A stretch of 64,000 nucleotides of DNA from an uncultured bacterium (GTDB lineage Bacteria > Patescibacteriota > Saccharimonadia > UBA4664), in contig CAVRET010000001.1 of the NCBI GenBank assembly GCA_963720265.1, forward strand, positions 325,916-389,915, given 5' to 3'. Shown here piece by piece: positions 19,724 to 50,192 of the stretch. Numbering within the stretch: the stretch's first letter is position 1; each line of letters starts with the position of its first letter. The notes below the pieces were generated by a model. It was not told the origin of the DNA. It saw only the letters and a list, made by a program, of their open reading frames with translations, and searched no databases. Position numbers and translations under genes: made by a program.

Positions 19724-22700
19724 GTGATTTATCGATCTGGGATCAGACGCATAAATAAATCAGTTTTACCTCGTATGCGCCTGACTCTGATTGGAGTGGG
19801 GCTGCTTTTGGGTAGTTTGGCAATGCTTGTGCCAAGTACGTCTAAGGCTTCGAGCAGCAGCGTCAATGGAACCATTAATTTCCAGGGGCGGCTGCTGACG
19901 GCGGCCGGGGCGGTAGTGCCAGATGGCAGCTACAACATTGAGTTCAAGCTCTACAAGAACGGTAATGGGCAGTCGGCCGGCGATAGTGGGGGGAGTCCAG
20001 CTGGCAGCCTCTTGTGGACTGAAGACTGGGTCTACGGTACTGGTTCGCCGGACAACCGGGTGGTGGTGAAGAACGGGTACTTCTCGGTCCAGCTTGGAAG
20101 TATTACTGCGCTGCCGAGCAACCTGTCGCTCGATGAAAGCAACTTGTGGCTCAGTATGAACATTGAGAACCCAACCGGCGCGACGTTGCAGTGTACTGGT
20201 TTTTCAAGCAACTCCCCAACCGGCTGTTCCGGCGGCGATGGTGAAATGACGCCGATGAAGCAACTGGGTGCGGCGCCGTATGCGATTAACGCGGCCAACG
20301 CCAACCAAGTTAACAGCTACGGTTTGAGCAACAACTTTTTGGATCTGGCGGCACCCTCAGGCATTAGCGCTGCTAACGGCAGCGCCGGTTCAGTGCCGGG
20401 TACAGTGTGTTACACGGTGACGGCGACCAACGCCAACGGCGAAACCGTTGCCACTAATAATTCCGGTACCGTGACTCCGGGCGGCACGCATGTAGTGAAC
20501 GTAACCTGGTCGCAAGTGACCGGTGCTACAGGATACAAGATTTACCGTAATACGAGCTGTTCGTTTACCAGTGGCTCGCTGTTTTTGACTACTATTACGA
20601 GTGGTTCCATTACGACCTACCAGGATACGGCAACTTCGACCAGCGCCGGCTTACCGCCAACCACGGTGACCGGCGGTACGGTTGATATCCAGGCCTGGAG
20701 CTCACAGACGTCCAACCTGTTGCAGCTGCAAAACTCGTCCGGTACTAATGTGTTGAGCGTGGACCCATCTGGAGACACAACTGTGGCAGGTGTTATTACG
20801 GTGGCCGGCGGCGCGGCGCAAGACATTACAACAGCCGGCGCTGCGACTGCTACAGCTATTACTATCCAACCCGGTACCTCGAGTACCGCCAGCACCGGTG
20901 CGACTCTCAACTTGCAAGGCGGTAATGATTCTGGAACTTCGGGCGTAACGGCCGGCACGGTGGCGATTCAGGGCGGCAATGCAACTGGAGCCAGCGGCAC
21001 TCGAAATGGCGGCAACGTCACTATTGACGCCGGTACGGGCGCTAACGCAAACGGTAGTATCACTATCGGTGGCACAGCATCCGGCACCAATACAACTGGA
21101 GTTACGGTGAATGTGGCCACTGATGCCACCGCTTCGGGCAAGACCGACACGATTAATATTGGAACGGGCAACGGAGCCGGTGGTTCGGGTACCGCCAAGG
21201 CAGTCAATATCGCGAGTGGTACACCCGGAGGGACCGAGATAAATACCGTATTAATCGGGTCGCTTGCAAATGCCAGTACTACTACCCTTCAAGGCGGCAC
21301 CTCTGGCACGGGCATCGCGCTCACCACCGGCAGTGGCGGCACAATAGCGCTAACTGCGGCTGGGGCCGGCAATGTGACGGTGACAGCAACCAACGCGTCG
21401 CTCAACTCAAGCGGCGTGCTGAATGTGGTGGGCGGTTCAGCCGGTTTTAATATCGGTGGATCGACTACGACCGGGAATTATCTGCGTAATAATGGTACGA
21501 ATTTTGTGTCGAGCGCCATCCAATACGGCGACATCCCGACCTGTGGCGGCACCTGCAACTACATTGGCAACCAGATTACGACGCAATCCAACGCTAACTT
21601 TAATATCAAAAGCGCGGCCTCAAGCTCCGTCGGCGGTGCCATTCAGGGCGCCACTAGCCAGACGGCAGATCTGTTTGATCTGCGAGATTCGACTGGCGCT
21701 AATCTTTTGAGCGTTAGTGCGGCCGGGAACCAAGAACTTGGTGGCTACGAAGACGTGTCCGGCATGGGTGGGTTTGGCTCGTTTGGGAATTTGCTGCTGC
21801 AATCTGAGGCCCTGGATCAGACGGGCGACTGGACGGCTTCCAACATTACGGTGACAGCGAATAACACGGTTGCACCGGACGGCACAACCACGGCCGAGAA
21901 ACTGGCCGCTACCGTCTCGGGTACACACAGCATGACGCAGATTTGTACTACGGGATGCACAACCAACTCGGTTACGTACACTTACAGCATCTGGGTCAGG
22001 GCCGACGCTGCCAATAATCCGACTAACGTTCAATTACGTATTGACTGGAACAATGGTTCAGGCCAAACGGGTACTGCGGCTACGTTCTCCGCTACCACCA
22101 CGTGGCAGCGCTTTAGCGTAACACAAGCGGTAAGCGCTTCGGGCATGGTTTCGGTAACGCCGACCTTGCTAGTAAGCACAAATAGCGTGACTGTTTATGC
22201 GTGGGGCGCACAGTTGAATTTGGGCTCGACTCCCGGCGTGTACGAGCAGACCGTTCTCAGCCAGATCATCGCCGGGGAAGGAGAGGCCCTTAACGGTTAT
22301 CTCACGATTGTGTCGCCGAGCAACGGCGGTATCACGAGGATTGATGGCTACGGCAACATGAGTTTAGCCGGGCAGCTTACTACCGGTGATATGGCTACGT
22401 TGAATACGTATACTACCAGTGACAGCGCACTTCAGGCAGTGCAAGTAGGTTCCGGCTTTACCGTGCCAACGGCCATTATCGACGGCGGCACGTCGCCGGG
22501 GGCAGGGGCGGACTTGCTCCAGCTACAAAGTAATGGAACGCCGGTGGCGCGGTTTAATAACGCGGGCAATTTATTTGTGGCTAGTGCTATTAACACGCAA
22601 ACAGGTGGTGGGACGTTATCGGTTCAGACAACTGGCAACGGTGCGATAACGACCGGCTCCGGACTTCTTACCGACGGGGGCAACCTGACGGTCCAGGGTA

Positions 22701-25700
22701 CGACTACCACATTGGGAGCGACGGGTTCCGCTAATACTTTGGGATTCGCCAACACCACGGCGGCCACGGGTGCAACCATTGATTTTGCCAGCACCTCGGT
22801 CGGCATTGGTAATAGTTTGACCGTCCAGGGACAAACGGGGGCAGCAACAGATGCCGGTGGCGCCGTCAATGTCTACGGCGGTACGGGTGGTACGACTGGT
22901 GGTGGCGGACTCGTGACCATCCAGGGAGGCGCCGCCTCGGCCACGTCGGGTTCGGCCGGCGGCGGCGTTGACATTTATGGCGCCAATGGCACGGGCACAA
23001 GTACTGGCGGCGCCGGTGGCTCGGTTGCGATTCAGGCTGGCAACGGTACGTCAAGCGGCAACAACAGCGGTGGTAATGTCACGCTGCAGGCCGGTAGCGC
23101 CAGCGGGAGCGGAGCGACAGGCAGCGTGGTGGTAAAGAATGCGGCTAACTCGAGCACGGCACTCCAGCTGCAGGACACCGCTGGGGTGGACGTATTGGAC
23201 GGTTCAACCAGCACGACTAATCTAGTATCACAACCGGATATAACCGGCAGCACAGCTTCGAGCTGGGCGGTCAAGAATGGATCCTCAGCACCTGTTGGCG
23301 ATACGTCAAACCCATATGAGACGACCTCATCGATTAAGACGGTTGCTAGTGGTTCTACCGCCTATTCCGGTATGCAGACCTCCACATTTACTTCCGCACT
23401 GGTTCCAAATGACTACTATCAGCTTACTTTTTGGGCCAAGTGTTCGGGTACTATTGGAACGTTTACCTTCGGACGTCAGGACGTGTCGGGCACTGACATT
23501 AACTACACGACGACCACCTGCAACACCACTTGGCAACAGTACTGGGCAACGTGGCAGGCCGGCGGCACGCTGACTTCGCCCAACATTTACATCGACGCCG
23601 GTACTCCGGCCAATGCTACCACGATTTGGGTCGACGGCGTCACGCTCAATCAGGTAGGGGGGCTGGCTACCGGCCCATCCAACTACCAGCCCGGAACGGT
23701 TTATATACCTGGCGTGATCGGCTCGCCGGTGACGTTTGAAAATTCTGCCAACTCAGCCGGCGCGTTCCAGGTACAAAATTCGGCCGGTGCAAACATTTTA
23801 AACGTTAATACCAGCACATCGACCGTCACTGTTGGATCTAGCGGCAACGACAATGTGAGTCTGGCAGTTGATAACACTGACGGGACGGCGGCGATTGAAG
23901 TACGCAGCGGCGGTAGCGCCAGCTACGATACGTTTGTTGGCGTAAATTCCGGTGCCAACAACGCGCTTAACGTCGGTTCGACGCAGGGCTACCAAAATAC
24001 AGGGTTTGGTAATGGAGCGCTTCAGTCTAATTCGACTGGTTCATATAATACTGGCCTGGGGGTTTACGCGCTTAACGCCAACCACAGCGGCTCGGACAAT
24101 ACGGCGGTTGGTAATGGTGCGTTGAACGTAATGAATGGCGGCTCCGATGACGATGCTTTGGGCTTCCAATCGCAATATGATAACTCGAGTGGTAGTTACA
24201 ACGTGTCCATCGGCAGCTACTCGCAGTACTACATCGGTGGCAGCGACAATACTTCATTGGGTTACCATAGCCTTACGAATTCATCTGATACGACCGGCGC
24301 TGATAATACGGCTCTTGGGTACAATGCGGCTAGTACTGACTCGGCTAGCGGATTTGTCAGCGATCTTAATTTGCAGAATGCGACTGCTATCGGATACGAC
24401 TCCGAGGTGCAAGCGAACAACAGTTTTATTCTGGGTGGCCAGGGTTCAAACGCTGTGAACGTGGGCATTGGCACCACGATTCCGCTCAACACTCTGAGTG
24501 TAAGCCCGGCTAATTACAGCACTGGAACGGCCGAAATTGCGAGCACGGGCACTACGGTTACAGGCAGCGGTACCACCTGGACAAACGCCATGGTGGGCAT
24601 GCAATTTATCTTTATGAATGGTGAGACGGGTACGATTACGGCCGTGGCGAGTACAACGAGTCTAACGATTAGCGCATCCCAGGCGGCCACCGGTGGGTTC
24701 ATAAATTACCGCATCCAAACCCCGGGATTTAATGTTACGAGCAATGGCGCTGCGTTCATACAGGCTACTAATTCTTCGGCCTTTGCAGTTCAGAACGCGC
24801 AAGGCGAGAGTGATCTTGTGGCAAATACCACAGACTCAACCAATTTCATTCTCGATTCCGATATGGTGCTAAATAGCGGCACCAGCCTAGTCGATTGGTC
24901 GGCGGTGAGCTCCGCTACAGTGACGCAAAATACAACGCCAACCGATAGTTACCTTGGCAATACCTCAATGAACCTTACTACGACTAACGCGTCTTCGGGC
25001 CAAGGCGCTACCACTACGGCGTTTACGCCCAGTCTGCCAACTGGCAGCGGTACGGTTTATACGGTGTCGTTTGAAGCCATGATGAGCACCGGTACGTATG
25101 CAGCTAGCAACCTAAAGATGATCGCGACCGGCGGCGGTACGCCTTCGTGCACTGGTTCCGCCAGCGAGACGATTAATGCCAACGGTTTCCAGCAAGTTTC
25201 CTGCACCTGGGCGGCTGATTCCGGCACTATTTCAGGCCTTTCCATTCTTGACCAAACCGCCAACGCTATGACCATGTACATCGACGACGTGCAGCTGCAG
25301 ACGGGAACGGCGGCTACAGCTTTTAACCTTGGCACCTTGCAGCTCAAGGGTGTTATAACGAGCCCGGTGGCGGTGCAGAATGTCGTTAACTCCACCACGG
25401 CGCTCCAGGTCCAAAATGCCTCCGGCTTCAATGTGCTCACGGTTGATACTCTCGACAACTCGGGCCAGGGTCAGGTTATTCTGGGGGCTGCCAGTCACAA
25501 TAACGGTGCGCTTGTGTTCGATAACAGTACGAACTCAAACACGGTGTCGCTTGTGAGCGGCGCAACAAGCGGCAGTGGCTACAGTCTGACGTTGCCGACC
25601 TCCGGGCCAACGTATAACCAGTGTCTACAAACCGGCAATTCAAGTACTACGCAGCTACAGTTCGGTCCCTGTGCGACTGCCAACGCCAATTTGACCAAGG

Positions 25701-28700
25701 TAGCTGAATCGGATGAGCACTCCGGAAATGCATTGACCTTTACTCCGTCCAAGATCGGGGACGAGATTGTGCTGTTCTATAGCTCGACAACGGCCAGCGT
25801 TACTGTGTCCGCCATGAATACCACGTCGGGGACGGGCGTTACTACGTGGACAAAAGTCACCAGTGCAACTGGCACCAAAGGTGACGTTGACATGTGGATG
25901 GGCCAGGTGACCGGAACCGGTTCAACGACGGTCACGGCGACTGTAACCGGATCACCATCCACGTTTGAACTGACGCAGATCGAGTATACGACCTCCGGTG
26001 TCAGCTCAGGTACGGTGTGGCAGATGACAAATTCCAACACCAACTACATTACGGTCGCGACCACGACGGTGACCTGGCCAAGCTTTGTGGCCCCAGCCAG
26101 CCAGGAGGCCTACGTTGGGTACGATTCAAACGTTGGTGGGACACCTAGCACATCTGGAACGGGTCCGTTTACGTACACCCTTACCGGCGCCAACAACATG
26201 TGGGTGTATGATTCGTCGACCGTATACGGGTCAACGTATGCGCCGACGACAACTGTGGCCTCATCGTTCCCGGAGACCATAGGCGGACTACTTATCGCGT
26301 ACAATCCTTCGTCCATCTCCAATTCCACTGCTACACAGGTAGCTAATTTCAATGTCCAGGCGGCGACGAGTGGATCGGTGGCGGGCTTGCTGCAGGCGAA
26401 TGCAGCCGGTAGTGGTGACATACTGGATCTGGAAAATGGCAGCGGCAACCTGGTCGATAACGTCACGAGCAATGGTGTGCTCCAGGTGCAAAGCGCCAGC
26501 GGCGTGAATGTGCTAACGGCTGATAATACGATTGACGCCGTGACGCTTGGGGGCGCTGCCGCGCCGAGCTATGTGAATGAGTGGGAGGCCAACTCCACCA
26601 GTGGCTACCCGACGATTTCGGCATTCTCCCCTACCACCATTGGTGACGTTATGGTTGTAGCAATTAAGACCGTGCCGGGGAACAAGGTTACGTCGGTGAC
26701 GGATACAGATGTGAGCGCCTGGCACTACGTGACGTATAACAACGGAAACGTGCATGAAGAGTTGTGGTACGGCACGATTACCTCAACGGCGTCAACTACC
26801 ATGACGTTTAACAGCATCTCCGGAACGCCTTGTACGGCCGGCGTGAGCTGCGAAATTGTGGCCGAGGAATTCACGGCCGGTTTGGGCGCTAATACTAACT
26901 GGTTTGCCACCACGAGCAATACGACAACAACCGGTTCGCCCTCCTCGACCATTTCTTTCCCGTCTCTTAAGGCCACCGTTACCAACGGCTTGTACTGGGG
27001 CTTCGCATATTCGGGCGGTACGGCTGGCAGCTGTATAACCGGCGGCTTTACTTGTCTCACTACCCCCAAGGGTAACGACGTGATTTATGACCCGACAATG
27101 GTGAATGGCACTACGTATTCTCCAACCGCCAACAATACTAGCAACGTTTACGACACGCTTGGCATGATTTTGGTGGCCTCTACCTCGAACCTTAACGTGG
27201 TTGGCACGACCCAGTTGAACGGTGCCGTGACATCACCGGTGGTATTCGCCAATTCTGTTAATTCCGCGACTGCATTCCAGATCCAAAATGCTTCTGGTGC
27301 GGATGCGTTCTTGGTCGACAATACCAACAGCGGCCTGGTCCAGAGCGATGACACCCTGCAGATTGGCCCGGGATCTCCTGGTACTACGACGCCGAAATTC
27401 CTCTACCTGTCGGATGTGACCTCAAATGGAGCCGGTAACCCACTCATTATTGGCCAGTGGAATAGTCCCGGTAACTGGGGCATTGGGCCAAATAGCAACG
27501 CTAATGACAATACTCTTAGGCTTGGTGTGACGACCGCCAATGGTGTGAACACTTGGAGTACAACGCAGAACGTCAGCCTGCTCGTGGCCGGTACGCTGGC
27601 GGTTCAGCCCACGTCTGGCAATGATTCGACTTCTGCCTTCCAGGTGGCGAGCTCAGCTGGTACTAACCTTGTTAACGTTGACACTGCAAATGGCAACGTT
27701 AATCTGGGCATTAGCAGCTCAACGCCGGCGCTTGGCGATACTGCCGGATCCGGGACTGCTGATACGGTATATGCGAACACGATACACGCGGGCAGGTTCC
27801 AGGCTAGCTATACCGGTCCAATCACTTCTATTTCGGCATACGTCGGTCAAGGCGGTCTTGATGGCACCAACAAGTTGTACCAGGTTGCACTTTATACGGA
27901 TACCACCTGTTTCGGTCATCAATGCCCGGGGACCTACATTGCCTCAAGTGCGCAGGGCACCTTATCGGGTTCAGCCACGTGGGATACGGCAGCTGTCTCG
28001 GCCACGGTTACGGCCGGCACATATTATTGGCTGGCATATACGTCAAATTCAACGATTACCAATGACAACACATTGTCATATAACACGGCTGCAGCCGGCT
28101 CTCTAGATGAAGAAACGGGTTTCACATTTGGGAGCGGCCCCTCGAATGGTTTTCCAACAACATTCGTATATCAGCCGCCTCAAGCGGGGTACTCGTACAG
28201 TATTTATGCAACGTACGGTTCCGGTTATGCGACTACGATAAATAGCAGCGGAACCTTGACTCAAAACGCCGCCGCGGTGTTTAAGGATGAGACGAGCTCG
28301 GCCACCGCACTCCAGGTGCAAAACACCGATGGTGAATCGGTATTCCAGACCGGGACCACTCAAGCGGTTGATGGTATTACAAATTACGTCGCCGATTCTG
28401 AATTCGCGCTTGGCAGTGGTGCTTGTCCGCTCACCGACTGGTCTGTCGTGGGCTCACCAACTACTTGTGCCCAAAATACGACTGCGGCGAATAGCTATGA
28501 GGCCGACACGTCCTTGCAGCTCGTAACCACGGCGTCGGCTGGGCAAGGCGCATCTACCAGCACCTTTACCGCCACCCCAACCACTACTTCTAGTGGCCAG
28601 GGTTCAATCTGGACAGTGTCATTTTATGCTGAGCAGACGAGTGGTACTACTCCGATTACAGGTGCCAACCTGACCGCGGCGACGACGGGTGTCGTGAGCT

Positions 28701-33103: not shown

Positions 33104-33113
33104 TTAGGGTATG

Positions 33114-33719
33114 CTAGTTTTTATCCGGGGCCAGGTTATCAACAATTGACCGCATCGCATCCGCACCGATTGGCTTTGGAGCATTGATGAGGATCCAGGT
33201 ACCATCATTGGTAAACAGCGCTCCGGTGGTACGGTCAACAAGATCCGAAATGTAGGCGTGGCCGTACTCGTTATTGTAGACGGCATCTGCCTTTAGTGTG
33301 CTGGTGTCGAAACCTGGCGGGATCGCTTCCTCGGTAAACGCTAGCGTGTTACCGGCTGAATCCTCCATGCCGAATTCGAGTACGTTGTCTTGATAGTCGA
33401 CGGTACCGGCTTCGAGATTGAAATTGGAGGTAAAGTTTGGTTTAAAGTAGTAGAGTGTGAAGCCGGAAGCTTGGTTGACGGCGGATTGCGGAAGGGCGTC
33501 GGGTGGTTGTTTGGGCGACTGGGCAGGGATGAGAGCAAAGGCTGAGCCGACAGCTGCCAGCGCTATCACGATGGATCCGGCAACTATGAGAGATTTTCTC
33601 GAGGGCACACTGATGTGCGGCAAGGTGAAACGGCGAGCTGCATTTCTCCCCCGTTTTAGCATTTTGAGCCTTTGCTCTAGTTCTTCTGGTGCTCGTTCGG
33701 GTATAAAACGCTTGATCAT
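33114..33719 (-). CDS. Small membrane-anchored partner protein convergent with giant gene 1 (N-in, single TM, extracytoplasmic domain).
   Basis: Start set at MIKRFIPERAPEELEQRLKMLKRGR; the longer ORF extension is GC noise. TM segment LIVAGSIVIALAAVGSAFALI. The N-terminal 25 aa are near-identical to those of 49156..49770. Confidence 0.65.
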   Translation of the reverse strand: MIKRFIPERAPEELEQRLKMLKRGRNAARRFTLPHISVPSRKSLIVAGSIVIALAAVGSAFALIPAQSPKQPPDALPQSAVNQASGFTLYYFKPNFTSNFNLEAGTVDYQDNVLEFGMEDSAGNTLAFTEEAIPPGFDTSTLKADAVYNNEYGHAYISDLVDRTTGALFTNDGTWILINAPKPIGADAMRSIVDNLAPDKN

Positions 33720-33818
33720 GCTTACTAGATTACACGAAATGGCGGGCGCGGCCAGTGGCGGAGTTTGGACGGCTTTAAGCGTAAGGAGTATATTCAGAAT
33801 ACTAATGTGAGGTGAGGC

Positions 33819-34547
33819 GTGGTTAATATGGGCAAGTTTGTGCCGCGTAAGAGCGGGTATGTGATCGGTTTGGTCGTGGCGTCGCTTGTGGGTGGGTTGG
33901 TGTCTGCTGCTGCTTTGGCAGCGATTCCGGATGCAAGTGGGTTGATCCATGGATGCTATAACACGAAAAGTGGTGCCATGAAGGTTATTGATGGCTCGAC
34001 GGGATCGTGCACCAATAAGCAGACTGCGCTCAATTGGTACCAGGGCGGCACACCGGTTGTGCAAGATGCTAACGGGCAGGCGCTTGGAACATTGATGATG
34101 TCTGGACTTAATGCCTCTGGCTTTGCTCCTAGCCCTACTGCGGTGTTCAATTCGCAGCTCAGCCGAGTAGTATATATAGGCATAAGCGCAGCAGATAATA
34201 CTAGCCTGCTCGTTGGCTATCCGGACGGTAGTTCTGTGGGCGGTTCTACCTATGACATATACTTTCAAAGTTCTGATTGCACGGGGCAAGCTTATGTCGT
34301 TAGCCAGGGCCCTGCTCTGAAAACCTTGCTTTTGAGCTGGCAAACAAGCTCCGGTACCCAAAGTTACGACGTTGTTGCTGATAATGCGCAACCACAAAGT
34401 TTCACTGCTAATAGTCAGGATTACGCTGGAACGTGTCAGAACGGTGCACAGCTTGGCTTGCCACATACTGTTTCGGGGGCATACCAGGCGACTGAGGTGA
34501 GCTTGCCATTCAGCGTGCCGGTGGCTACTCCCTTACAGTTTAACTAA
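33819..34547 (+). CDS. Secreted hypothetical protein (242 aa).
   Basis: SD-like gaggtgagg upstream. Signal peptide KSGYVIGLVVASLVGGLVSAAALAA. Cys pairs present. No family recognised. Confidence 0.55.
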   Translation: MVNMGKFVPRKSGYVIGLVVASLVGGLVSAAALAAIPDASGLIHGCYNTKSGAMKVIDGSTGSCTNKQTALNWYQGGTPVVQDANGQALGTLMMSGLNASGFAPSPTAVFNSQLSRVVYIGISAADNTSLLVGYPDGSSVGGSTYDIYFQSSDCTGQAYVVSQGPALKTLLLSWQTSSGTQSYDVVADNAQPQSFTANSQDYAGTCQNGAQLGLPHTVSGAYQATEVSLPFSVPVATPLQFN

Positions 34548-34712: not shown

Positions 34713-34833
34713 TTTTGAAAAGTGTGTTGTGTATTTTGCTAGTTGATTTGTGTGAATTTCTAAAAACCAGATATGGGCGTGATTGTGCAACATGACAATT
34801 ATTCACACAGTTTTCGATGTGATGAAAATGCCT

Positions 34834-34861
34834 TTGCGATGGTAAAATTTATTACTATAAT
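34834..34861 (+). promoter_or_regulatory. Strong sigma70-type promoter candidate for giant gene 2.
   Basis: TTGCGA - 16 nt - TATAAT inside an AT-rich 200-bp leader (34700-34910) in an otherwise GC-rich region. Confidence 0.45.
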
Positions 34862-34910
34862 GCTTGCGCTTTGTGAGGCTGGCATGTAAAATTAACAACG
34901 TATGTAGTTT

Positions 34911-40900: not shown

Positions 40901-43900
40901 CACATTCCCGTCGTTAACTGCTACTCAGACCGGCCAAATGTACTGGGGATACATGGGTGCCGAGCGTGTTGGGGCGGCCGGCAGTTACCCCGGTTTCTCG
41001 TACGTTCCTACCGGCTACCAGAATGTCATTGGCTACGATACAGATTTAGCTGAGGGTACGGTGTACACTCCGACAGCGTCCCAGTCGCCGGCCGGCACTT
41101 CGCTTGGCTCGGCGGTCATAATTTCGGTCACAGACGGTAACGCCCTGACGGTGAATGGGGCGGAGACCATTACCAACACAAACTCCATCAACGCCTTGCA
41201 GGTGCAAAACTCCGCCGGCACCAGCCTGCTGGGCATTGACACGGTTAACAGCCAGGAAACCATCGGCACCTCCGACACCACCACCTTCGGCAACACCTAC
41301 GATGCGGCTACCGCTCCCGAGGGCGGATTTGGCGCCGGCTACTACTGGGATGGCGTAAGCCAACAGGAACTCGTAGCGCAATCGTTTACGACTGCCGGAG
41401 GCGGGCCCTTATCTTCACTTTCGACTTATGTTGGCACCAACGGCATATCGAGTACCAACAAGCTTTACCAGATGGCAGTGTACTCTGACAACGCCGGCCA
41501 GCCGGGAACGTACATTGCGTCAACTGCCGTGGGCAATCTTGGTTCGTCAGCCGGTTGGAAAACCCTGCCCATTACGGCTACCTTGGCGTCGGACACGACC
41601 TATTGGCTCGTCTATTGGACGAACGTGAATGACAACAACAACAACGGTCAGGATATTATCAACACCTTGCGCGGTACATCCAATACCCAAATGTGGGGCA
41701 CTTATGAAAACTGGCAATGCTCGAGTGGTTGCGGGTCTAGTACCAATGGTATGCCAAATACCTATCCCACCAGCGGCAACAATACTACCAATGGCACCAT
41801 CGCCAGCATATATGCCACGTTCGCGAACAACTTGCCGGCATTGCAGATTGATTCCGCTGGCAATAGCATCCAGGATGGCACCGCTTTGTTCCAATCCCAA
41901 ACTGACTCTGACACCGCCTTGGTCGTCAATAACGCCGACGACCAGCCGGTACTGCAGGTGGCCACCACATTCAACGGCGTGGGCGTAGACTGCTCGCCGG
42001 ACGGGAACTACAACTTGACGGTGTGCGCCGGCGGCAATGGTAACGGCGGTGGTTTGTCTGACCTCGGCTATTCGTACCAGCTGCTGAACGTCCAGAACGA
42101 TGGCAACACATATTTGGGCGTCGACAGTATTAACGCCGATGTTCAATCGGGTGATTTGTCAGTAGGCAACTCGGTGAATAATCTCAACGGCCCCGGACTG
42201 TTGGTAAGCGACAACTTCGAGAGTGGGAACTTCAGCCTGTGGAGTGGCGGCTCATCCGGCGGTGAGTCCGTAACTACGTCTGAGGCTCACAGCGGCCGAT
42301 ACTCGGCCGAGACCAACGTGTCGAGCTCCACCGGCTATGCGCGTACCAGTTTCTCTTCTACCTCCACGACGTTTACTCTCAATGCCTGGGTCTGGGCACA
42401 CGTACTGCCAACGTCGGGTGAACTGCCATTGTTTACCTTGTACCAGGCGTCCACCCCAACCAACAAAGTCCAGCTGTACACGGATCAGAATGGATGCCTT
42501 GGCGTTATAAATGGTACGACCGACCTTGGCACAGACTCGTGCGGAACCTTTATTGGCGATGATGATTGGAACAACATCGCCATATCCATAAATCGCACTA
42601 CCGGTGAGATTGCACTCTACGCCGGCCTCGGTTATATGTACTACGGAGCTCAGGGATCAGACTATACCGGCCTCACTATCGGCTCGGGCTGGGACACGCT
42701 GGATATGGGTGTCACAAGCAGTAACACGGGGCAGTACTGGGTTGACGACCTGGCGTTTGGCACCGGCATTACGCCTTCTCTGGCCAACGGCCTCACCGTG
42801 CAAGATTCGCTTCACGCCAGTGGTAGCGCTACGTTCGGCGGCCAGGTTTTGGTGCAGCCGGCGTCGAACTCTGCCACCGCCTTCCAGGTCCAGAATGCCA
42901 GCGGCTACAGCGTATTGAGTGCCGACACTTCCAGCAACTCGGGGCAGGGCCAGGTGGTCTTGGGCAGTTCCAGCAATAATAATGGGACGCTGTTGTTTGA
43001 TAATTCGGCCGGTTCGAGCCAGGTGGGACTAGCTGTAACGTCGTCGAATACCAACACCTACACACTCGACCTGCCGATTGCCGTGCCTAGCACAAACCAG
43101 TGCCTGTTGTCCGGCTCAAGCACGCCGACACAGTTGACGTTCGGGTCGTGCGCTAGCGGGAGCGCGGGCATCAACAACCAAACCACGACCCAATCGAACG
43201 CCAACTTTAACATTCAATCGGCCGGGGCAGCGGACGTGGGCGGTGTTATTCAAGGTGCCAGCTCACAGACGGCCGACTTGCTTGACCTGCGCGATTCGGC
43301 TTCCGGCAACCTGGCAGTGGTGAGCGCGGCCGGCAACGAGGAGAGTTTGGGCTACATCGACAACGCCGGCATTGGCGGGATTGGCCAGTATGGAAACCTA
43401 CTGCTTGACAGCGAACAATTGGACCAAGGCGGCGTGTCGACGCCGCCTTGGTCGACCAACAGTGCGTCGTTGGTAGTAACTGCCAACAATACGACGGCAC
43501 CGGACGGCAATACCACAGCCGAGAAGCTCGCCGGTACTGGAAACGTGAACATTTCGCAATCTGAATCAACCTCCGCTGTCGCAACCACGTACACGTTTAG
43601 CGTGTGGTTGAAGCAGTCGAGTGGGGCGGGCACTAGCGGCTTGTGTATTTACAGCACCGCCGGCACTCCGTCGAGCTGTACGGCTACCGCGGTAACGCCC
43701 AATTCCACCGACTGGCAGCGGTTTAGCGTAACGCAAGCTGTAACCGGCAGCCCAACGGCGATTACGGCGGAGATTTTGCCGGGCAACGGCTCAACGGCCA
43801 CGATTTACGCCTGGGGCGCGCAGCTGGTGGTAGGCACGACTCCGGAAGTGTACACCCGCACTACGGCGGCGGCTGTTGCGGCTTCAAGCGGTGTGGTGAC

Positions 43901-46900
43901 GAACGGCGGTGTACTCATTAATAGCCTTAGCTCGAGCGACACCCCGGTTACCGTTAATAGCAGTACCGGCGTGAGTACGCTCAAGATTGCGGACAGCGGT
44001 GCGACAACGTTTAAATCGTCGACCAATTCCACCACCGCCTTCCAGATACAGAATGCATCAGGTGAGGCTTTGCTTACGGCCGACACTACCAATACGGCAC
44101 TAGTTCTGGGTCAGGACAATACGCCCACCGATCTCACCGTCCGCGGTGGCGCCGCCAGCGGGCCAAATGTGGATGGCGGCGACATTACCTTCCAAGCTTC
44201 TAACGGCACTGGTGCTGCCGGCTCTGGTTCGCTCATCTTCCAAACTGCTCCGCCGGCCGGCGGGGGTGTTACCGAAGACAATTCCGGGACCTCAACCGCC
44301 AGTGCGTGTTCAACAGCCACCCTTAGCTTCACTACCGGATCCGGCTCAAACCGCTTGCTGCTCGTCGGAGCCGAAACCGGCGCCGGCGAGACCTACACTG
44401 CCGTGACCTACAATGGTACCAGCATGACGCAGCTGTCAACGCAGGACAGCGGGACCACGCACATTGAGCTGTGGTATCTGCTAAACCCTGCGTCAGGGGC
44501 GCATAACATTGTTGGCACCCTATCATCGACCCTGCATGGCTGCACGCTCGACGCAGTCTCATATGCCAACGTCAACCAAGTAACGCCGTTTGGTACGGCT
44601 GCCACTAATAGCGGCACAACTACGGGTTTGCAATCCACGAGCAATACCGTCAGCACCACCAGCGCTGCTCAAGTGGTGTTTGATGTTTTGGGGGCAGACG
44701 TCAGTGAGTCGATTGCACCCGGATCGGGCCAGACACAATTAGTAAACTTCCCGGGCACCGGGGGCTTCTACCCGCTGGGGGAGTCCAGCGCTCCGGGCAC
44801 GGGCGCCGCCGTTAACATGAATTGGGCCGTTAACTCGGCCGATTGGGCCGACATTGGCGTACCCATCAACCCGGTTGCCAATTCCACCGCCGACACCCTG
44901 CAAACCGTTCTGGATCTGGCCAACACGGGTAATGTCGGCATCGACAATTCCAACCCTCAGGAAACGCTCGATGTCGCCGGTACCGCCAATTTCCAGAACA
45001 CCACCAACTCCACCACCGCTTTCCAAGTGCAGAATGCGAGTGGCGCCAACCTCTTGACCGCCGATACGACTAACAACCAGATCCTGCTCGGCTCCGATAC
45101 CAACCTGATCCTCTCGGGGACCACCGCCTACATATCCAACCCTCAGGGCTATGGCGACAGTGAGGCTTTCGGAGCTGGTGCGTCGGTCACCTCGAGTAAT
45201 GCCACCGCCGTCGGCTACAATGCTAGCTCCTATTATGATGGGGCAGCAGTCGGGGATAATGCGGCCGCGGGCGGCTATGGCGTTGCACTTGGATACGATG
45301 CTGCCGCCACCTATGTAGGCACAGCCGTCGGCTCGGAATCGGATGCATCTGGGAACTACAGTACGGCGGTCGGTGGTGGAGCAGTCGCAGGGTCAAATTA
45401 CGCGACTGCGTTAGGCTACCTGGCAGCCGCTAACTCGGCTGACAGTATTGCGCTGGGCGCCGGATCTGTTACTAGCAGCGCGAACCAACTGGTTATTGGC
45501 AGTTCCACTGCCAATGGCGCCTATATTCAAGATGCCTACATCGGTTCGGGTATATCGGACATTGCGCCGCAGAGCATTACCGTGCACGCCACCGGCGGCA
45601 GTGGCAGCAACGTGGCCGGTGCCAACCTTAGCCTGGCCGGGGGTATCGGCACCGGTAATGCCAACGGCGGCAATATTAATCTCCAAGTTGCCAAGCCGGG
45701 GGTCAGCGGCTCGAGCGCTAATACGCTTGCAACCGTTGCATCCATCAGCGGCCTCAATGGCTCAGCGTTATTCCAAAATTCCACCGACTCCACCGCGGCT
45801 TTCCAAGTGCAGAACGCGAGTGGCACAAACCTGTTGGGCGTCGATACGTTCGACAGCACCGTGAGTCTAGGAGAAGCCGGTTCGGTCGGCGGTTCCGTGT
45901 ACGGTAAGACGGACATCGGCGGAACGGCGGGCTTCGGCTACTACGATGGCACCAGCGATGTACTTGCCGCCCAGCAGTTTAAGGCCACTGGAGGCGGTAC
46001 CATCTCGTCGCTGTCAACCTACATTGGTATGGTCAAATCTTCGCCGAACAACCAGGGCCAGATGGCAATCTACGCGGATAACGGCAGTAACGCGCCGGGC
46101 AGCTACATTGCATCCACAGGCGTCCACACGCTCACGGCCAACAGCTGGAACACCTGGTCAATAACCGACGGCACCGCCTCGTTGACAACAGGTAGTGAGT
46201 ACTGGCTGGTATATTGGACAAATGACGATGCCATTGATGGGGACAATGCACAGTACCTTGATACAGGCCAAGCCGGCCAGTTAGGGTACCTTTCCGACTA
46301 TGGGTCAGGCGTTAGCTTCGGCACCGGGCCCAATAACGGCATGCCGGCGACGATCCCTGGCGGAACTGTGCTCTCGGGTGCCTACTTCAGCATCTATGCG
46401 ACCTATGGCGGCTCGACTGCCGTACCAGTTACTATTGGTGCTGACGGCAGTGTGACGGCGCTTGGGGCGGCCACGTTCGGAGATTACCTAGATTCCACCA
46501 CCGCCTTCCAGGTGCAGAATGCGGCTGGGGCCAATCTGCTCGGTATCGACACCTCAGGCGACAATGTTAACGTCGGCTCTACGGGATCCACGGCGCTGGC
46601 CGGTACTATCAACGTCGGCACCTCCACCGGTGCGGCCCAGACCGTCAACGTCGGCTCAAACGACGGGGCATCGGCGACCACAATTCAGGGCGGCACCGGC
46701 AACGTCAACGTACTTTCAACTGCGAACATTACTCTGGGGCAGACCAGTACCAATGCCGGCGGAACGCTGGGCTATACCGGTATTGGTTCCAACGGGAACG
46801 GTTGTAGCGGAGGTTGTAATATTACAGCGTCGATGTTTACAACCACTAGTGGCGGTACCGTTGGGACAATGTCGGTGTACGTTAGCTCCCCGGCCTCGGG

Positions 46901-49142
46901 CGATCATTACCAATTTGCCATCTATAGTGACAATGCCGGGTCGCCGAATACCTACATTGCGTCATCCGCTGTGGGTACCCTCACTTCGGTCGCGGGTTGG
47001 TACACGCTGCCCATTACAGCGACACTCGCACCCAGCACCACCTACTGGATAACGTACGCTGATAATAGTGGAAATGACGGCATTAATTACAATAGCGGCC
47101 CGGCCGGTTATTATGTTTGCAATACCACGTTCACTTTCCAGAGCGGCCCGGATAACGGTTTTCCGGCCTCCTACCCAGGGGGTGGCAGCTGTTATCCAAC
47201 CACCCAGGCCAGCATTTATGCAACTTTCAGTGGTGGTACGCAGTCGGCAGTAACGATTAACAGTCTCGGCAACCTCACCGATACCGGTACGGCCAACTTT
47301 GAGGATACAAACGATTCCACCACCGCTTTCCAGGTGCAAAACTCTTCGAACGCGGCGGTGCTGAATGTGGATACGACGAATCAGGCGCTTAGTGTGGAGG
47401 CGTCGAACTCCTCAAGCACCACGCCGACGCTTAATGTAATTCAATCGGGTACCGGCGACGCCACGCTTTCGATACAGGATGCGGGGGCGAATTTCTACCA
47501 AGGCGTAAATGCCAACAATGGCAATGCCTTCACGATTAACTCCCAGTACGCTGCCACGCACAACTCGGATCTGGGTGAAGATTTCGAGTCCAGCGTGCCA
47601 AACGGCGATGACCAAAACTCCAGCTGGGCTGAGGCAACCGAGTTTACCGCCAGTTCTACCGGGACAATGTCGTCAATCAATGTGGCCTTTGATAGTCGAA
47701 TTAACTCCAGCAGTGTATTTTCGGTCGCTGTTTACTCAAATAACGCCGGCGCACCGGGTACGCTGTTGGGTTCATACAGCGGCACCCAGGTGATTCAGGT
47801 TCCGAACCCGGGGACGCTAAACATCAACTGGAATAACATTACACTGAATTCACCGGTGAGCGTCACGAGCGGTACGATCTATTGGCTCGCCTTCCAGGTG
47901 AACGACTCTTCAACGTTTGATGGCATTACTACTGGCGGTTTAAGCGCGTATCGGAGCGGCATCACCCCCGGGACCTGGGCTAACTGGAGCAGTATGGGCA
48001 CGAGCCAAGGCAATAGTACGGTTATAAACGGCGTGTATGCGGTGATTGATTCCAGTACATTGAGCGATACGTACGCAAACGGGCTGTTTTCGCTATCAAC
48101 GGCGGGTGCCGCGACGTTCCAGGGTGTTGCCGACTCGACCTCGGCTCTGACAGTGAAGAATGCGTCGGGCATACAGGTACTTAATGTCGATACGGCCAAC
48201 AGCAGCATTACGGTTAATAGCGCGGTAAACTCACCGGTGGCGTTCCAGGTCCAGAATCAATCAAATAACGACATTTTGACGGTTGACACAACCGATTCAC
48301 GAGTGGAAGTGGGTCCGAGCGGCGGAGGCACAACCGCTACATTATTGGTGCTGGGCATAAAGACCAGTTCCGGCGACCCAGCCGGTGTGACAGGGGCGAT
48401 GTATTATAACTCGAATACGGGTACATTCCGGTGCTACCAGAACAGTGCGTGGGTGAACTGTATTGCCACCGGACTTGGATCGTACCAGGTGCTCACCAGT
48501 ACCTCTGCCAACAGCACCTATACCACACCGGCCAATACCAAAGCGATTATGGTTGAGATGTGGGGTAGCGGTTCGGCGGGTGGTGGTGGCGGAGGCACTA
48601 CGGGTGATGGAGCTGCCGGTGCAGGGGGTGGGGCCGGTGGATACGCCCGCAAGGTTATCGTGGGTCCGGCCTCAACCTATAAGTACACGATCGCGGCCGG
48701 CGGTACTGCAGGTACAGCGGGTAACAACGCCGGTAACGCTCCGGGTTCCGCGAACTGTTTCGGTACCAACTCGACCGCTTGCAGCTCGCCGATTATTAGC
48801 TGCGCCGCCTCCACAGGCGGCGCCGGCATGGCCGCCGGTACAACCAATGCGGGGAGTACCGGCGGAGCCGGAGGCGCATGCACTGGAGGCGATCTCAACA
48901 CTACCGGGGCAGCGGGGCGAAACGGCTCGAGATGGTCTCAGACCGTGGCCCTATCGGGAGGTGGCGGAGGTACCCTCTTTGGTGACGGCGGATCTGGTAT
49001 TGGGCTGCAAGGGACCGGTATTACCGCTGGTAGTACCGTCTACGGCGCGGGCGGCGGCGGGGGCGTAGTGATCAACAGCGCTACTGCTACGGCCGGAGGT
49101 GCTGGGGCACAGGGCGTGATTATCGTTTGGGAATTTAAGTAA
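34911..49142 (+). CDS. Giant secreted modular surface protein, 4743 aa (alternative ATG start at 34965).
   Basis: Uninterrupted 14.2-kb ORF. Signal peptide MLRISLAFVAVGLVSVSLLTAGTARA. N-domain paralogous to giant 1. Three tandem ~276-aa CBM4_9-like modules (DDTFEGSG...AHGGSYSL...GHVYAFSAWVKA...SGWTQMTG...YLDDVTVTDE) carry a 66-bp perfect DNA repeat. Ancient internal duplication of an ~330-aa segment. 14 or more punctuation motifs. Gly-rich C-terminal tail. Confidence 0.85.
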   Translation: MRNWSLYGARTSRHVVQNMLRISLAFVAVGLVSVSLLTAGTARATSGTINDTMNFQGRLLTAAGAVVPDGNYNIEFKIYKNGDGQSTGDTTGSPSGTLLWTEDWLNNNSVTANTIPVVIKNGYFSVQLGSITTLPSTVTLDESVLWLSMTVAGSAGATSTSCTTFSACNSSGEPEMLPMKSLSAAPYAINAANANTLGGLTSSQFIQNTTSPQSSANIDIASGNAADPAAKLQQASSATAPVLTLELGGSPGVGGDLLDLQDSSTAVLDKFDSSGNLTLGNNSNKTISVAPAASGGGSSLTLMAGNGASGTNAGGNLILEAGASTGGAAGGSIIVKPQTDSTTAFQVENASGAALLTADAANTAIVLGQDTTPTNLTVRGGIASGSNVGGGNITFQASNGTGAAGSGSFVFQTAAPGGGITLDNTSYTGGSGNITLSFTTGSGSNRLLMVQAETNASRSFSGITYNGVSMTQVATENSLTNDDGVGAHVELWYLVNPASGTHNIVATMVGSGAGSLAAASFTNVNQTTPLGTAATGNGTASGTQQSSLSVATSAGQLVIDGIGTDVPSSGVGVDSPPASGQTQLWYSANSPSLYGAAGSTAPGTGSTVFMKWNVTNADWADIAVPINPASNSTADTLNNDLVIANSGNVGIDNSSPQNTLDVSGTARVQSTTNSATAFQVQDASGSSLLDVDTANTVVNVGTAGSTAVNVGGTAGSIGRTSIGSVQDVGANNLIVGYQYTAPSTGSIGSMSAYIGANVQSSPYNQYQFALYSDNGSNAPNAYLASSAVGTEAANTWNTLPISYSVTSGTKYWLVMWTNTTNSADNAPNGDTNVASSYVAYTTGQTFGSGPDNGFPATFPTPTYDASQYPDSVYASYNSTSGPAVTVSSTGTLGVYGSAIFESGSDSTTAFQIQNASAASLFNVDTSNDVVDVGATGTTGPSTTVNIGTSSNAAQTVNLGSTDGASATTIQGGTGNVSINTGAGSGSTGSITVESGNSSGGDSGNITVDTGTNSPGGTVVEDDTFEGSGTGSVDGYTNNDSSVTPTASNTTAHGGSYSLKLTEAGSYWYAFNAGTQSVTPGHVYAFSAWVKAASTSETMSGYLYWACGDDTYHAWGFATAVSSGWTQMTGTLTAPAVNSGCSPGTETVSMGITDNTFGGSSGEIQYLDDVTVTDESLITEPSVDIGTSNAQAVNIGGNNAGQYGPTTVEGGGGISLLAGTGASVNIGTSNSNNVTVGDASDIDSTTLQGGTLGVSINTGAQSGTTGAITLESGNSSGGDSGNVNIDTGTNSPGGTQVQDDTFEGSGSGSMDGYDNNDDGLSAISASNTTAHSGSYSLKVTESSAYWFANTSEDTTVTSGHVYAFSAWVKAASTGESIDANVYWGCSIGGIVQWGSATSTSSGWTQITGTATAPALYPGCIPGDEFAQLTFGGIAGTSGQIEYIDDATITDESSITEPSVNIGTLNAQAVNIGGNNAGQYGPTTVEGGGGISLLAGSGAPITIGTGNSNNVTVGDAYDEDATTLQGGSNGVSINTGDNYDGTGSISITTGNSTSDTAGNITIDTGTSTFSGSQVEDDDFETGTDTFGCWFGCVSATQSAAEAHGGSDSLAVAEDGSGSWGVIEGYPGVAATPGHEYAFTAWVRGTAAETVSADAFFPGSVGPGDTYDTVTDSTSGWTELTGDMTAPVGATNVYLGFTGGTAGGGATDYIDDITITDLGTVSAPNIAIGGTNAQQVTIGNENEGGYTSIYGGGDGISLQTSNGGTVALGTVNQSNISIGAVGSSTEDDVVQIDDTSGGGTSIVDIGGTATNDGSDTASTVNIQGGQTGLVVANAGATLQTYTDSTTALQVQNSSGGDVLNVDTTDGQVTAGNTNTARAEQEWDSHGTNQATLSDAPQADGDLLMLAVSIPSTSVTVSSVSGGGVSSWSNATSYTDSTVGYRTEIWEGTVTGAGAGTITVNYSSTPGGGCELAAQEFSAGVGAGWSVVATGHAVNSSSTTVTFPSLTATQTGQMYWGYMGAERVGAAGSYPGFSYVPTGYQNVIGYDTDLAEGTVYTPTASQSPAGTSLGSAVIISVTDGNALTVNGAETITNTNSINALQVQNSAGTSLLGIDTVNSQETIGTSDTTTFGNTYDAATAPEGGFGAGYYWDGVSQQELVAQSFTTAGGGPLSSLSTYVGTNGISSTNKLYQMAVYSDNAGQPGTYIASTAVGNLGSSAGWKTLPITATLASDTTYWLVYWTNVNDNNNNGQDIINTLRGTSNTQMWGTYENWQCSSGCGSSTNGMPNTYPTSGNNTTNGTIASIYATFANNLPALQIDSAGNSIQDGTALFQSQTDSDTALVVNNADDQPVLQVATTFNGVGVDCSPDGNYNLTVCAGGNGNGGGLSDLGYSYQLLNVQNDGNTYLGVDSINADVQSGDLSVGNSVNNLNGPGLLVSDNFESGNFSLWSGGSSGGESVTTSEAHSGRYSAETNVSSSTGYARTSFSSTSTTFTLNAWVWAHVLPTSGELPLFTLYQASTPTNKVQLYTDQNGCLGVINGTTDLGTDSCGTFIGDDDWNNIAISINRTTGEIALYAGLGYMYYGAQGSDYTGLTIGSGWDTLDMGVTSSNTGQYWVDDLAFGTGITPSLANGLTVQDSLHASGSATFGGQVLVQPASNSATAFQVQNASGYSVLSADTSSNSGQGQVVLGSSSNNNGTLLFDNSAGSSQVGLAVTSSNTNTYTLDLPIAVPSTNQCLLSGSSTPTQLTFGSCASGSAGINNQTTTQSNANFNIQSAGAADVGGVIQGASSQTADLLDLRDSASGNLAVVSAAGNEESLGYIDNAGIGGIGQYGNLLLDSEQLDQGGVSTPPWSTNSASLVVTANNTTAPDGNTTAEKLAGTGNVNISQSESTSAVATTYTFSVWLKQSSGAGTSGLCIYSTAGTPSSCTATAVTPNSTDWQRFSVTQAVTGSPTAITAEILPGNGSTATIYAWGAQLVVGTTPEVYTRTTAAAVAASSGVVTNGGVLINSLSSSDTPVTVNSSTGVSTLKIADSGATTFKSSTNSTTAFQIQNASGEALLTADTTNTALVLGQDNTPTDLTVRGGAASGPNVDGGDITFQASNGTGAAGSGSLIFQTAPPAGGGVTEDNSGTSTASACSTATLSFTTGSGSNRLLLVGAETGAGETYTAVTYNGTSMTQLSTQDSGTTHIELWYLLNPASGAHNIVGTLSSTLHGCTLDAVSYANVNQVTPFGTAATNSGTTTGLQSTSNTVSTTSAAQVVFDVLGADVSESIAPGSGQTQLVNFPGTGGFYPLGESSAPGTGAAVNMNWAVNSADWADIGVPINPVANSTADTLQTVLDLANTGNVGIDNSNPQETLDVAGTANFQNTTNSTTAFQVQNASGANLLTADTTNNQILLGSDTNLILSGTTAYISNPQGYGDSEAFGAGASVTSSNATAVGYNASSYYDGAAVGDNAAAGGYGVALGYDAAATYVGTAVGSESDASGNYSTAVGGGAVAGSNYATALGYLAAANSADSIALGAGSVTSSANQLVIGSSTANGAYIQDAYIGSGISDIAPQSITVHATGGSGSNVAGANLSLAGGIGTGNANGGNINLQVAKPGVSGSSANTLATVASISGLNGSALFQNSTDSTAAFQVQNASGTNLLGVDTFDSTVSLGEAGSVGGSVYGKTDIGGTAGFGYYDGTSDVLAAQQFKATGGGTISSLSTYIGMVKSSPNNQGQMAIYADNGSNAPGSYIASTGVHTLTANSWNTWSITDGTASLTTGSEYWLVYWTNDDAIDGDNAQYLDTGQAGQLGYLSDYGSGVSFGTGPNNGMPATIPGGTVLSGAYFSIYATYGGSTAVPVTIGADGSVTALGAATFGDYLDSTTAFQVQNAAGANLLGIDTSGDNVNVGSTGSTALAGTINVGTSTGAAQTVNVGSNDGASATTIQGGTGNVNVLSTANITLGQTSTNAGGTLGYTGIGSNGNGCSGGCNITASMFTTTSGGTVGTMSVYVSSPASGDHYQFAIYSDNAGSPNTYIASSAVGTLTSVAGWYTLPITATLAPSTTYWITYADNSGNDGINYNSGPAGYYVCNTTFTFQSGPDNGFPASYPGGGSCYPTTQASIYATFSGGTQSAVTINSLGNLTDTGTANFEDTNDSTTAFQVQNSSNAAVLNVDTTNQALSVEASNSSSTTPTLNVIQSGTGDATLSIQDAGANFYQGVNANNGNAFTINSQYAATHNSDLGEDFESSVPNGDDQNSSWAEATEFTASSTGTMSSINVAFDSRINSSSVFSVAVYSNNAGAPGTLLGSYSGTQVIQVPNPGTLNINWNNITLNSPVSVTSGTIYWLAFQVNDSSTFDGITTGGLSAYRSGITPGTWANWSSMGTSQGNSTVINGVYAVIDSSTLSDTYANGLFSLSTAGAATFQGVADSTSALTVKNASGIQVLNVDTANSSITVNSAVNSPVAFQVQNQSNNDILTVDTTDSRVEVGPSGGGTTATLLVLGIKTSSGDPAGVTGAMYYNSNTGTFRCYQNSAWVNCIATGLGSYQVLTSTSANSTYTTPANTKAIMVEMWGSGSAGGGGGGTTGDGAAGAGGGAGGYARKVIVGPASTYKYTIAAGGTAGTAGNNAGNAPGSANCFGTNSTACSSPIISCAASTGGAGMAAGTTNAGSTGGAGGACTGGDLNTTGAAGRNGSRWSQTVALSGGGGGTLFGDGGSGIGLQGTGITAGSTVYGAGGGGGVVINSATATAGGAGAQGVIIVWEFK

Positions 49143-50186: not shown

Positions 50187-50192
50187 CGTGTA

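Follow-up and report, generated by a model that had tools for sequence, protein, structure and literature searches.

A motif of the type TAFQ[VI]QN punctuates two giant proteins, p1 and p2, encoded in a stretch of 64,000 nucleotides (nt) from an uncultured bacterium (contig CAVRET010000001.1; this whole 64-kb stretch is referred to as the window). The motif is probably the conserved core of a β-hairpin joint of ∼45 residues that links independently folding, mostly lectin-type modules of N-terminally anchored giant surface fibers of Saccharibacteria. These fibers would probably be trimeric and distant kin of the mosaic adhesive trimer (MAT) fibers of Bdellovibrio and of the S74-type stalks of phage tail fibers. 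An earlier reading of the DNA made from its letters alone (the sequence-only reading) had guessed an origin in a bacterium of the candidate phyla radiation (CPR), and rightly so, the SecY protein being 82 to 92% identical to Saccharimonadia proteins.

A profile of 63 columns, built from 18 seed copies and run on all six frames of the window (domain expectation value [E] of ≤0.01), found the motif confined to p1 (11 copies) and p2 (14 copies). The identical set of 25 copies had been obtained in a first self-comparison of both proteins with a hidden Markov model, in agreement with the at least 10 and at least 14 copies counted in the sequence-only reading. Seven of the 25 copies (five in p1 and two in p2) lay outside the seed alignment and were weaker. 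There were 7 occurrences of the six-residue core A[FL]Q[VIL]Q[NDS] in p1 and 11 in p2, compared with means of 0.001 and 0.006, respectively, in 2,000 composition-preserving shuffles, and a chance occurrence of the motif is excluded. Successive copies were spaced by 814, 201, 339, 207, 359, 265, 121, 224, 226, and 270 amino acids (aa) in p1 and by 333, 232, 935, 251, 241, 321, 386, 327, 260, 235, 274, 273, and 32 aa in p2. The spacing of 250 to 450 aa initially reported was only roughly right, the gaps being chiefly of 200 to 390 aa, with outliers of 32, 121, 814, and 935 aa.

To define the extent of the motif, a logo was made from 1,193 copies of 152 proteins, anchored on the Phe residue. It gave the consensus L.V.G.A.F[QK]N..[ND]STTAFQ[VI]QNA.G..[LV][LF].VDT.N..V.[IV]G, with high information content solely from position −20 to position +24. 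Since the information drops to background level beyond these limits, the motif is a unit of ∼45 aa conserved independently of its surroundings, and not one of ∼18 aa as it had first been described. The first strand was conserved on both faces, with F and V on one side and Q and Q on the other. A mean-field direct-coupling analysis of 1,180 copies was discarded, as it was dominated by i,i+3 pairs that arose where copies were out of register by one residue, the alignment being ungapped.

Motif-bearing proteins form a large family. An exhaustive HMMER search with the motif profile against 1.84 billion cluster representatives (clusters at 50% identity) matched 2,453 proteins at an E of ≤1e-3, 1,030 at ≤1e-10, and 218 at ≤1e-30. 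The best 150 matches were mostly of 1,000 to 6,400 aa and contained 4 to 24 copies each. When one genome per species was scanned, 374 motif stretches were confirmed, the best 80 of which belonged nearly all to Saccharibacteria or other Patescibacteria. The same groups, in whose giant proteins the sequence-only reading had advised looking for the motif, accounted for almost all of the named genome matches. Literature searches on the motif strings found no paper mentioning it, and those on giant Saccharibacteria fibers found no description of a family that bears it.

The structure of the motif and its flanks was predicted with AlphaFold2, using a single chain of p1 (aa 2839 to 3115, motif-carbohydrate-binding module [CBM]-motif) and an alignment of 37 sequences that share its architecture. 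Both motif cores were modeled as β-hairpins (residues 25 to 28/34 to 39, LQVQ/SVFQTG, and residues 251 to 254/260 to 264; predicted local distance difference test [pLDDT] values of 74 to 80), and both hairpins were placed outside the central jelly roll. Foldseek matched this jelly roll to CBM22 and CBM4-2 structures (4xuo, with an E of 2e-5 and a template modeling score to the target of 0.65; 1k42; and 2y64), and also to CBM domains of phage tail fibers and tailspikes. Ninety-six BFVD phage proteins were matched at an E of ≤0.001, many of them annotated as tail fiber, tip attachment protein J, or CenC-like. In Pfam, CBM_4_9 matched the cluster representative of the same module at an E of 1.8e-4, just below the cutoff. 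The module between p1-9 and p1-10 is thus predicted to be a β-jelly roll of the CBM4/9/22 type, with sugar binding as its putative activity. CBM-decorated phage tail proteins (CenC-like CBM4/9) are structural matches to it, but punctuation by AFQ[VI]QN is not known in them. An earlier model built from seven sequences was poor (pLDDT, 47.5), and Foldseek gave a mere hint of a jelly roll with it.

Every copy in the window was located at a module boundary, as the sequence-only reading had stated. The converse was false, since in p2 the CBM_4_9 modules arranged in tandem (aa ∼976 to 1700; window ∼37836 to 40010) are joined by motif-free linkers rich in G, S, T, and N, of the type VNIGT..VTVG..ISINTG. 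These tandem modules have a period of ∼277 aa, their DNA copies are 74 to 78% identical, and they are the most recent duplications in the p1 and p2 genes. The stretches between motif copies in the window fell into paralogous families A to D, all of which open with the motif and are unrelated in the remainder, and module pairs are duplicated both inside p2 and across the two proteins.

The same organization was observed across the family, where 927 intermotif segments from 150 proteins gave 75 multimember families and 228 singletons (≥70% reciprocal coverage). A CBM_4_9-like module of ∼159 aa accounted for 110 segments, two of them in p1, from 54 proteins, and a Kelch propeller module of ∼377 aa accounted for 94 segments in 59 proteins. 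Other large families were an LVIVD propeller of ∼504 aa, LamG, and an unassigned unit of 113 aa, the commonest of all. Neither this unit nor the profile of the family A module had a match in the PDB by sequence. In word-indexed homologue searches, the family A module had one match, and a profile of the motif plus the capping loop described below matched short fragments alone. Module order varied from protein to protein. Of the blocks of BLAST similarity between proteins, 34% started at positions −25 to −5 of a motif (5.8% for random positions) and 32.5% ended at +15 to +40 (7.2% for random positions). The proposal of a conserved intermodule joint in an otherwise variable chain is sustained by these data, as the flanks carry no information, unrelated types of module begin and end with the motif, and the modeled hairpins stand outside the CBM fold.

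Other repeated elements were seen near the motif. A related hairpin-like element, SGDILDL.N.SG..V, precedes some copies (p1 aa ∼2215 to 2250 and ∼320 to 350; p2 aa ∼255 to 290) and closes the 113-aa unit. In p1, three DNA repeat copies spaced by 156 nt (52 aa) lie at window positions 29942 to 30282, upstream of the Pfam Kelch matches (p1 aa 3450 to 3700), a spacing that is consistent with Kelch blades.

In MAT fibers, which are intertwined trimers in crystal structures, a capping loop with the sequence V-G-G/N-pi-x-x-P-x-x-x-L is found at the edges of β-helix segments (PMC10769870). A regular expression derived from the MAT/S74 loop of that paper (VGIGxxxPxxxL type) found 290 sites in the 152 family proteins. 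More than half of the sites (164 of 290) were located exactly at +20 or +21 after the motif Phe, and 23 were at −29. Approximately 15% of the family copies run directly into a capping loop, and four copies are capped on both sides.

When the motif and the loop were combined in one profile, the PDB yielded 8OND (Bd2133; E, 8.8e-10), 8OJN (Bd3182; 4e-8), and 8OML (Bd1334; 2.3e-4), together with MyRF (7DC3; 0.024). The first 8OND stretch, SGSERMRIDTSG-NLGLGTAAPTSALHV, aligned with the loop together with the latter half of the motif. Links to phages were also found. P0016, a motif-bearing relative of 2,925 aa encoded on a 144-kb contig, is a phage tail fiber by its PHROG matches (phrog_9942, E of 1e-35; phrog_18345, 2e-28) and might stem from a phage that infects CPR bacteria; it carries many copies of the variant GGIRP.ADSTTALQLQN..GTS.L.VDTTN.RVGIGT. 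Single copies from the window gave weak matches to tail and tail-fiber PHROGs (E of 3.5e-4 to 0.1). In a collection of cultured phages, four records alone matched the motif-plus-loop profile, and weakly. Among the phage sequences, a 190-aa open reading frame (ORF) of Synechococcus phage S-H38 (L082:5968-6537), two genes downstream of the tail-fiber gene, carries NSTGTFSFDSGTLFVDSTNNRVGINITNPAYTIDVNG, a shorter hairpin plus a capping loop.

Both window proteins begin with a signal peptide or transmembrane helix followed by a MAT-like N-terminal domain. Motif copies then separate CBM-like, jelly-roll, and Kelch modules in p1, and five CBM_4_9 modules, one LamG-like module, and jelly-roll modules in p2, which ends in a Gly_rich_2 tip. 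From its ATG at 19775, p1 is identical to a gene of an independent public assembly with the same neighbors. The N-terminal domains of p1 and p2 are 58% identical to each other, and such a domain follows the signal peptide in 62 of the 152 family proteins. NCBIfam Bdello_MAT_N matched 17 of 23 family N-terminal domains, in all cases with scores that were significant but under the curated cutoff of 60 bits. By these scores, the domains of p1 and p2 would be remote homologues of the MAT N-terminal domain, not members of the Bdellovibrio subfamily. Sequence searches of the PDB with the p2 N terminus and with the N-domain profile gave no match. Many relatives (P0005, P0006, P0008, P0020, and P0022 to P0024) carry a zinc-ribbon-like N terminus, K.C..C...F.GR.DAKTCS.RCRKRLQ, ahead of the transmembrane helix, which would imply an N-terminal membrane anchor and a cytoplasmic domain in those proteins; p1 and p2 do not carry it.

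At the other end, the family has at least eight types of C-terminal tip, Phage Tail Collar and Gly_rich_2 among them; the p1 tip had no family assignment. Peptidase_S74 (the SDxxxK chaperone) had no Pfam match in p1, p2, or nine tip types, so that both p1 and p2 have a tip of the NS74-like kind, the alternative to S74 in MAT fibers. A second conserved element, LLVLG.K..SGDP.G..GAMYYN.....FRCY.N..W..C, stands directly before the tips (p2 aa ∼4475 to 4515, window ∼48333 to 48455; p1 aa ∼4200, window ∼32320). It is common to several different tip types of the family and may mark the transition from shaft to tip.

The closest known system is the MAT family of Bdellovibrio bacteriovorus (Caulton et al. 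2024, PMC10769870; PDB 8OND, 8OJN/8ONB/8ONC, and 8OML; NCBIfam NF053851), whose fibers are trimers that follow a meandering path and have end domains that fold independently and can be swapped. MAT proteins and the p1/p2 family have in common a signal peptide followed by a conserved β-rich N-terminal domain (∼130 aa in MAT; putatively a remote homologue in p1 and p2), the capping loop VG(I/G)xxxPxxxL, a strand similar to RMRIDTSG or LL.VDT.N just ahead of the loop, end domains that vary, can be swapped, and are not of the S74 type, and a mosaic organization. However, MAT proteins are far smaller, the constructs of the paper ending at residues ∼922 to 1151, and a variable domain is described only at their tip (PMC10769870), whereas the p1/p2 family reaches 4,400 to 6,400 aa, with up to 24 internal modules and the joint on both flanks. 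In the MAT sequences that the profile matched, NSTTAFQ[VI]QN, the first and Patescibacteria-typical half of the motif, was not seen, and the hosts also differ (Patescibacteria versus Bdellovibrionota). The capping loop is further shared with MyRF and with S74-type stalks such as T5 pb1 (4UW8) and the K1F endosialidase (3GW6), the relation of the latter two to the loop having been described previously (PMC10769870). Unlike the S74-type phage fibers, p1, p2, and the nine tip types gave no match to the Peptidase_S74 chaperone, and the p1 and p2 genes are chromosomal bacterial genes amid tRNA and housekeeping genes. A parallel in design alone, with no sequence relation, is offered by the trimeric adhesins YadA and BadA. 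Their neck connectors are short, highly conserved, and recur between unlike modules of very long fibers, the modules being interchangeable. The p1/p2 fibers differ in being N-terminally anchored, in monoderm-like CPR cells, and neither coiled-coil stalks nor a C-terminal membrane anchor was seen in p1 or p2, although no dedicated search for them was made.

We propose that the strand AFQ[VI]Q, an Asn-x-x-Gly turn, and the strand LL.VD would form the hairpin and that three identical chains would run in parallel. At each joint, the hairpins of the three chains would meet on the axis to give a short intertwined β-helix segment, bounded in many family members by the capping loop (VGIGxxxPxxxL). Association of three chains at the joints is suggested by the homology with MAT and S74 fibers, and a strand swap or a collar, as the sequence-only reading had imagined, is plausible there. 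Between joints, each chain would leave the axis and form a globular module by itself (CBM4/9-like, jelly-roll, LamG, Kelch, or LVIVD propeller), the three copies of which would splay out. Because an identical joint stands at both ends of every module, any module would fit beside any other, and structural compatibility, not DNA homology, would explain the mosaic module orders. The proposal would account for the conservation of both hairpin faces, for the presence of the same joint beside unrelated folds, and for the free order of the modules. The likely function would be multivalent binding of host-cell glycans by an epibiotic bacterium. The data establish the motif with its extent and distribution, its location at module boundaries, the predicted hairpin, the mosaic build, and the sequence links to MAT and phage fibers; the trimer, the meeting of hairpins on the axis, and the role as an adhesin are inferences.

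Several observations weigh against a trimeric joint of this kind. Only three capping loops were found within p1 and p2; the motif-only profile matched nothing in the PDB beyond chance ankyrins, and the PDB matches of the motif-plus-loop profile were carried mainly by the loop. The N-terminal domains scored below the NCBIfam cutoff, and the S74 chaperone, the classical trimerization aid, is absent from the matches of p1, p2, and the nine tip types. Three copies of a propeller of 380 to 500 aa at one level of a fiber would be sterically demanding. Finally, the monomer model alone gives the hairpins fair confidence, and a need for partners is not demonstrated by it. An alternative that we consider rather unlikely is that each chain stands alone as a monomer, like beads on a string, with the hairpin serving either as a short, rigid linker within the chain or as a cap docking on the neighboring module, comparable to the conserved linkers between domains of Ig-like repeat adhesins. 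The single-chain model formed its hairpins and reached an overall predicted template modeling (pTM) score of 0.73 without partners; CBM, Kelch, LVIVD, and LamG are normally monomeric folds; and the missing S74 chaperone is in accordance with monomers. However, the motif is in fixed register with a capping loop whose solved examples are intertwined trimers, the N-terminal domain is probably a remote relative of that of a trimeric fiber family, phage tail fibers are among the relatives, and conservation of both hairpin faces (F, V and Q, Q) suggests two buried interfaces.

The sequence-only reading had considered the motif a convenient recombination junction, and its repeated coding sequence might be kept as homology for the swapping, duplication, and deletion of modules. 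The mosaic order is real, the motif marks the beginning and end of similarity blocks between proteins, and there are duplicated module pairs, some inside p2 and others shared by p1 and p2, but we regard such a DNA-level role as improbable and the claim as not borne out in the form given. The 78-nt motif cores of the window had a median DNA identity of 53% (best pair, 77%), copies returned by a repeat finder were 60 to 83% identical to the reference copy, the same codon was used in 0.39 of the pairs of identical residues (0.355 expected from codon usage), and the longest exact run common to motif copies was 20 nt (median, 7 nt). Since the DNA copies have diverged and the synonymous sites are essentially random, the conservation reflects selection at the protein level. 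The motif DNA shows no sign of recent gene conversion, which is rejected on the same figures, and offers little substrate for homologous recombination. Similarity blocks ending at the motif would be expected anyway, as it is the sole sequence common to unlike neighbors, and structural compatibility between modules accounts for the mosaicism better than DNA homology does. It is very improbable that the motif serves as a modification site, its N-S-T and N-A-S sequons being conserved glycosylation sites as in HMW1-type adhesins. Although most window copies contain the sequons and a glycosyltransferase gene is located at 12294 to 13802, Asp takes the place of the first Asn in 37% of the 1,193 copies and of the second in 11%, and Ala that of the Ser of N-A-S in 39%. 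These substitutions fit a turn-forming Asx and not a sequon, and the whole protein is rich in S, T, and N, which yields sequons by composition. We give hardly any credence to the idea that the motif belongs to one described repeat domain, Ig-like or β-helix. Nothing in its support was found, the nearest known element being the capping loop (PMC10769870). No Pfam, NCBIfam (E of ≤1), or PHROG (E of ≤0.01) family spans the motif in p1 or p2, which rules such a domain out and, with it, the finding that would have overturned the joint of the sequence-only reading; in addition, various folds follow the motif, its conservation ends at −20 and +24, and AlphaFold2 puts it outside the CBM fold.

Features of the p1 and p2 region (window positions; motif copies are numbered by protein)
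Feature	Position	Strand	Description
Neighboring tailspike-like gene	17654..19642	+	662 aa, directly upstream of p1; BppL_N, DUF5907, pectate-lyase-type β-helix
p1, longest ORF	19724-33103	+	4459 aa, start GTG
p1 as called	19775..33103	+	4442 aa from ATG; start from public assembly
p1 N-terminal β-rich domain	19856..20368	+	NCBIfam Bdello_MAT_N, E 5.3e-5, 23.1 bits (cutoff 60); putative
Motif p1-1	20660..20794	+	Weak: LLQLQNSSGTNVLSVDPSG
Motif p1-2	23102..23236	+	TALQLQDTAGVDVLD
Motif p1-3	23705..23839	+	Profile
Capping loop VGIGTTIPLNTL	24461..24496	+	p1 aa 1580-1591; regular expression
Motif p1-4	24722..24856	+	Weak: SAFAVQNAQGESDLVANT
Motif p1-5	25343..25477	+	Profile
Motif p1-6	26420..26554	+	Profile
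Motif p1-7	27215..27349	+	Profile
Motif p1-8	27578..27712	+	Profile
Modeled unit, motif - CBM4/22-like jelly roll - motif	28238..29068	+	AlphaFold2, pLDDT 80.5, pTM 0.73
Motif p1-9	28250..28384	+	Profile; N-terminal hairpin of AlphaFold2 model
Motif p1-10	28928..29062	+	Profile; C-terminal hairpin of AlphaFold2 model
Motif p1-11	29738..29872	+	Profile
p2 ORF	34911-49142	+	4743 aa, start GTG
p2 as called	34965..49142	+	ATG start, called in public assembly
p2 N-terminal β-rich domain	35046..35558	+	aa 46-216; NCBIfam Bdello_MAT_N, E 2e-9, 37.4 bits (cutoff 60); putative
Motif p2-1	35883..36017	+	Profile
Capping loop VGIDNSSPQNTL	36855..36890	+	p2 aa 649-660; regular expression and register, −29 before p2-2
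Motif p2-2	36882..37016	+	Profile; capping loop directly before
Motif p2-3	37578..37712	+	Profile
Motif p2-4	40383..40517	+	Profile
Motif p2-5	41136..41270	+	Profile
Motif p2-6	41859..41993	+	Weak: DTALVVNNADDQPVLQVATT
Motif p2-7	42822..42956	+	Profile
Motif p2-8	43980..44114	+	Profile
Capping loop VGIDNSNPQETL	44934..44969	+	p2 aa 3342-3353; −29 before p2-9
Motif p2-9	44961..45095	+	Profile; capping loop directly before
Motif p2-10	45741..45875	+	Profile
Motif p2-11	46446..46580	+	Profile
Motif p2-12	47268..47402	+	Profile
Motif p2-13	48087..48221	+	Profile
Motif p2-14	48183..48317	+	Profile; tandem, 32 aa after p2-13, last before tip
p2 C-terminal tip	48504..49127	+	Gly_rich_2, Pfam PF21722, E 1.5e-9

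The tailspike-like gene upstream of p1, also present in the public contig, is given as context only. Its BppL_N is the N-terminal domain of the receptor-binding protein of the lactococcal phage baseplate, it had PHROG matches to pre-neck appendages, and its product resembles a second surface protein of the phage-receptor-binding type. Downstream of p2, a 330-aa ORF on the minus strand (49156 to 50148) overlaps tRNA genes at 49952 to 50034 and 50115 to 50187, had no family match, and is probably not a gene. Four large ORFs of 378 to 652 aa on the minus strand (window 354 to 7801) had no Pfam match at an E of ≤1e-5.

For the largely open question of how ultrasmall epibiotic CPR bacteria recognize and hold their hosts, published work has pointed to type IV pili and to a small number of essential surface proteins that carry glycan-binding domains (PMC10633639, PMC12206443). 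The motif described here marks out, as one very large family without annotation, at least 2,453 clusters (50% identity) of giant modular surface proteins, which are almost confined to Patescibacteria among the named genomes matched and tied by sequence to the prey-recognition fibers of a bacterial predator and to those of phages. As a sequence handle, it can be used to find such genes, to divide them at module borders before expression or structure prediction, and to compare module repertoire with host range. In a wider reading, which we put forward only tentatively, Saccharibacteria and other Patescibacteria would build giant homotrimeric fibers of up to ∼6,400 aa per chain and up to 24 lectin-type modules, with an ancestry common to phage tail fibers and Bdellovibrio prey-recognition fibers, and the AFQ[VI]QN hairpin would be a universal retrimerization clamp into which modules plug and play. 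If the clamp proved true, the joint could be reused for engineered chimeric fibers; if the wider reading did, these fibers would be the principal means by which epibiotic CPR bacteria recognize their hosts, alongside type IV pili.

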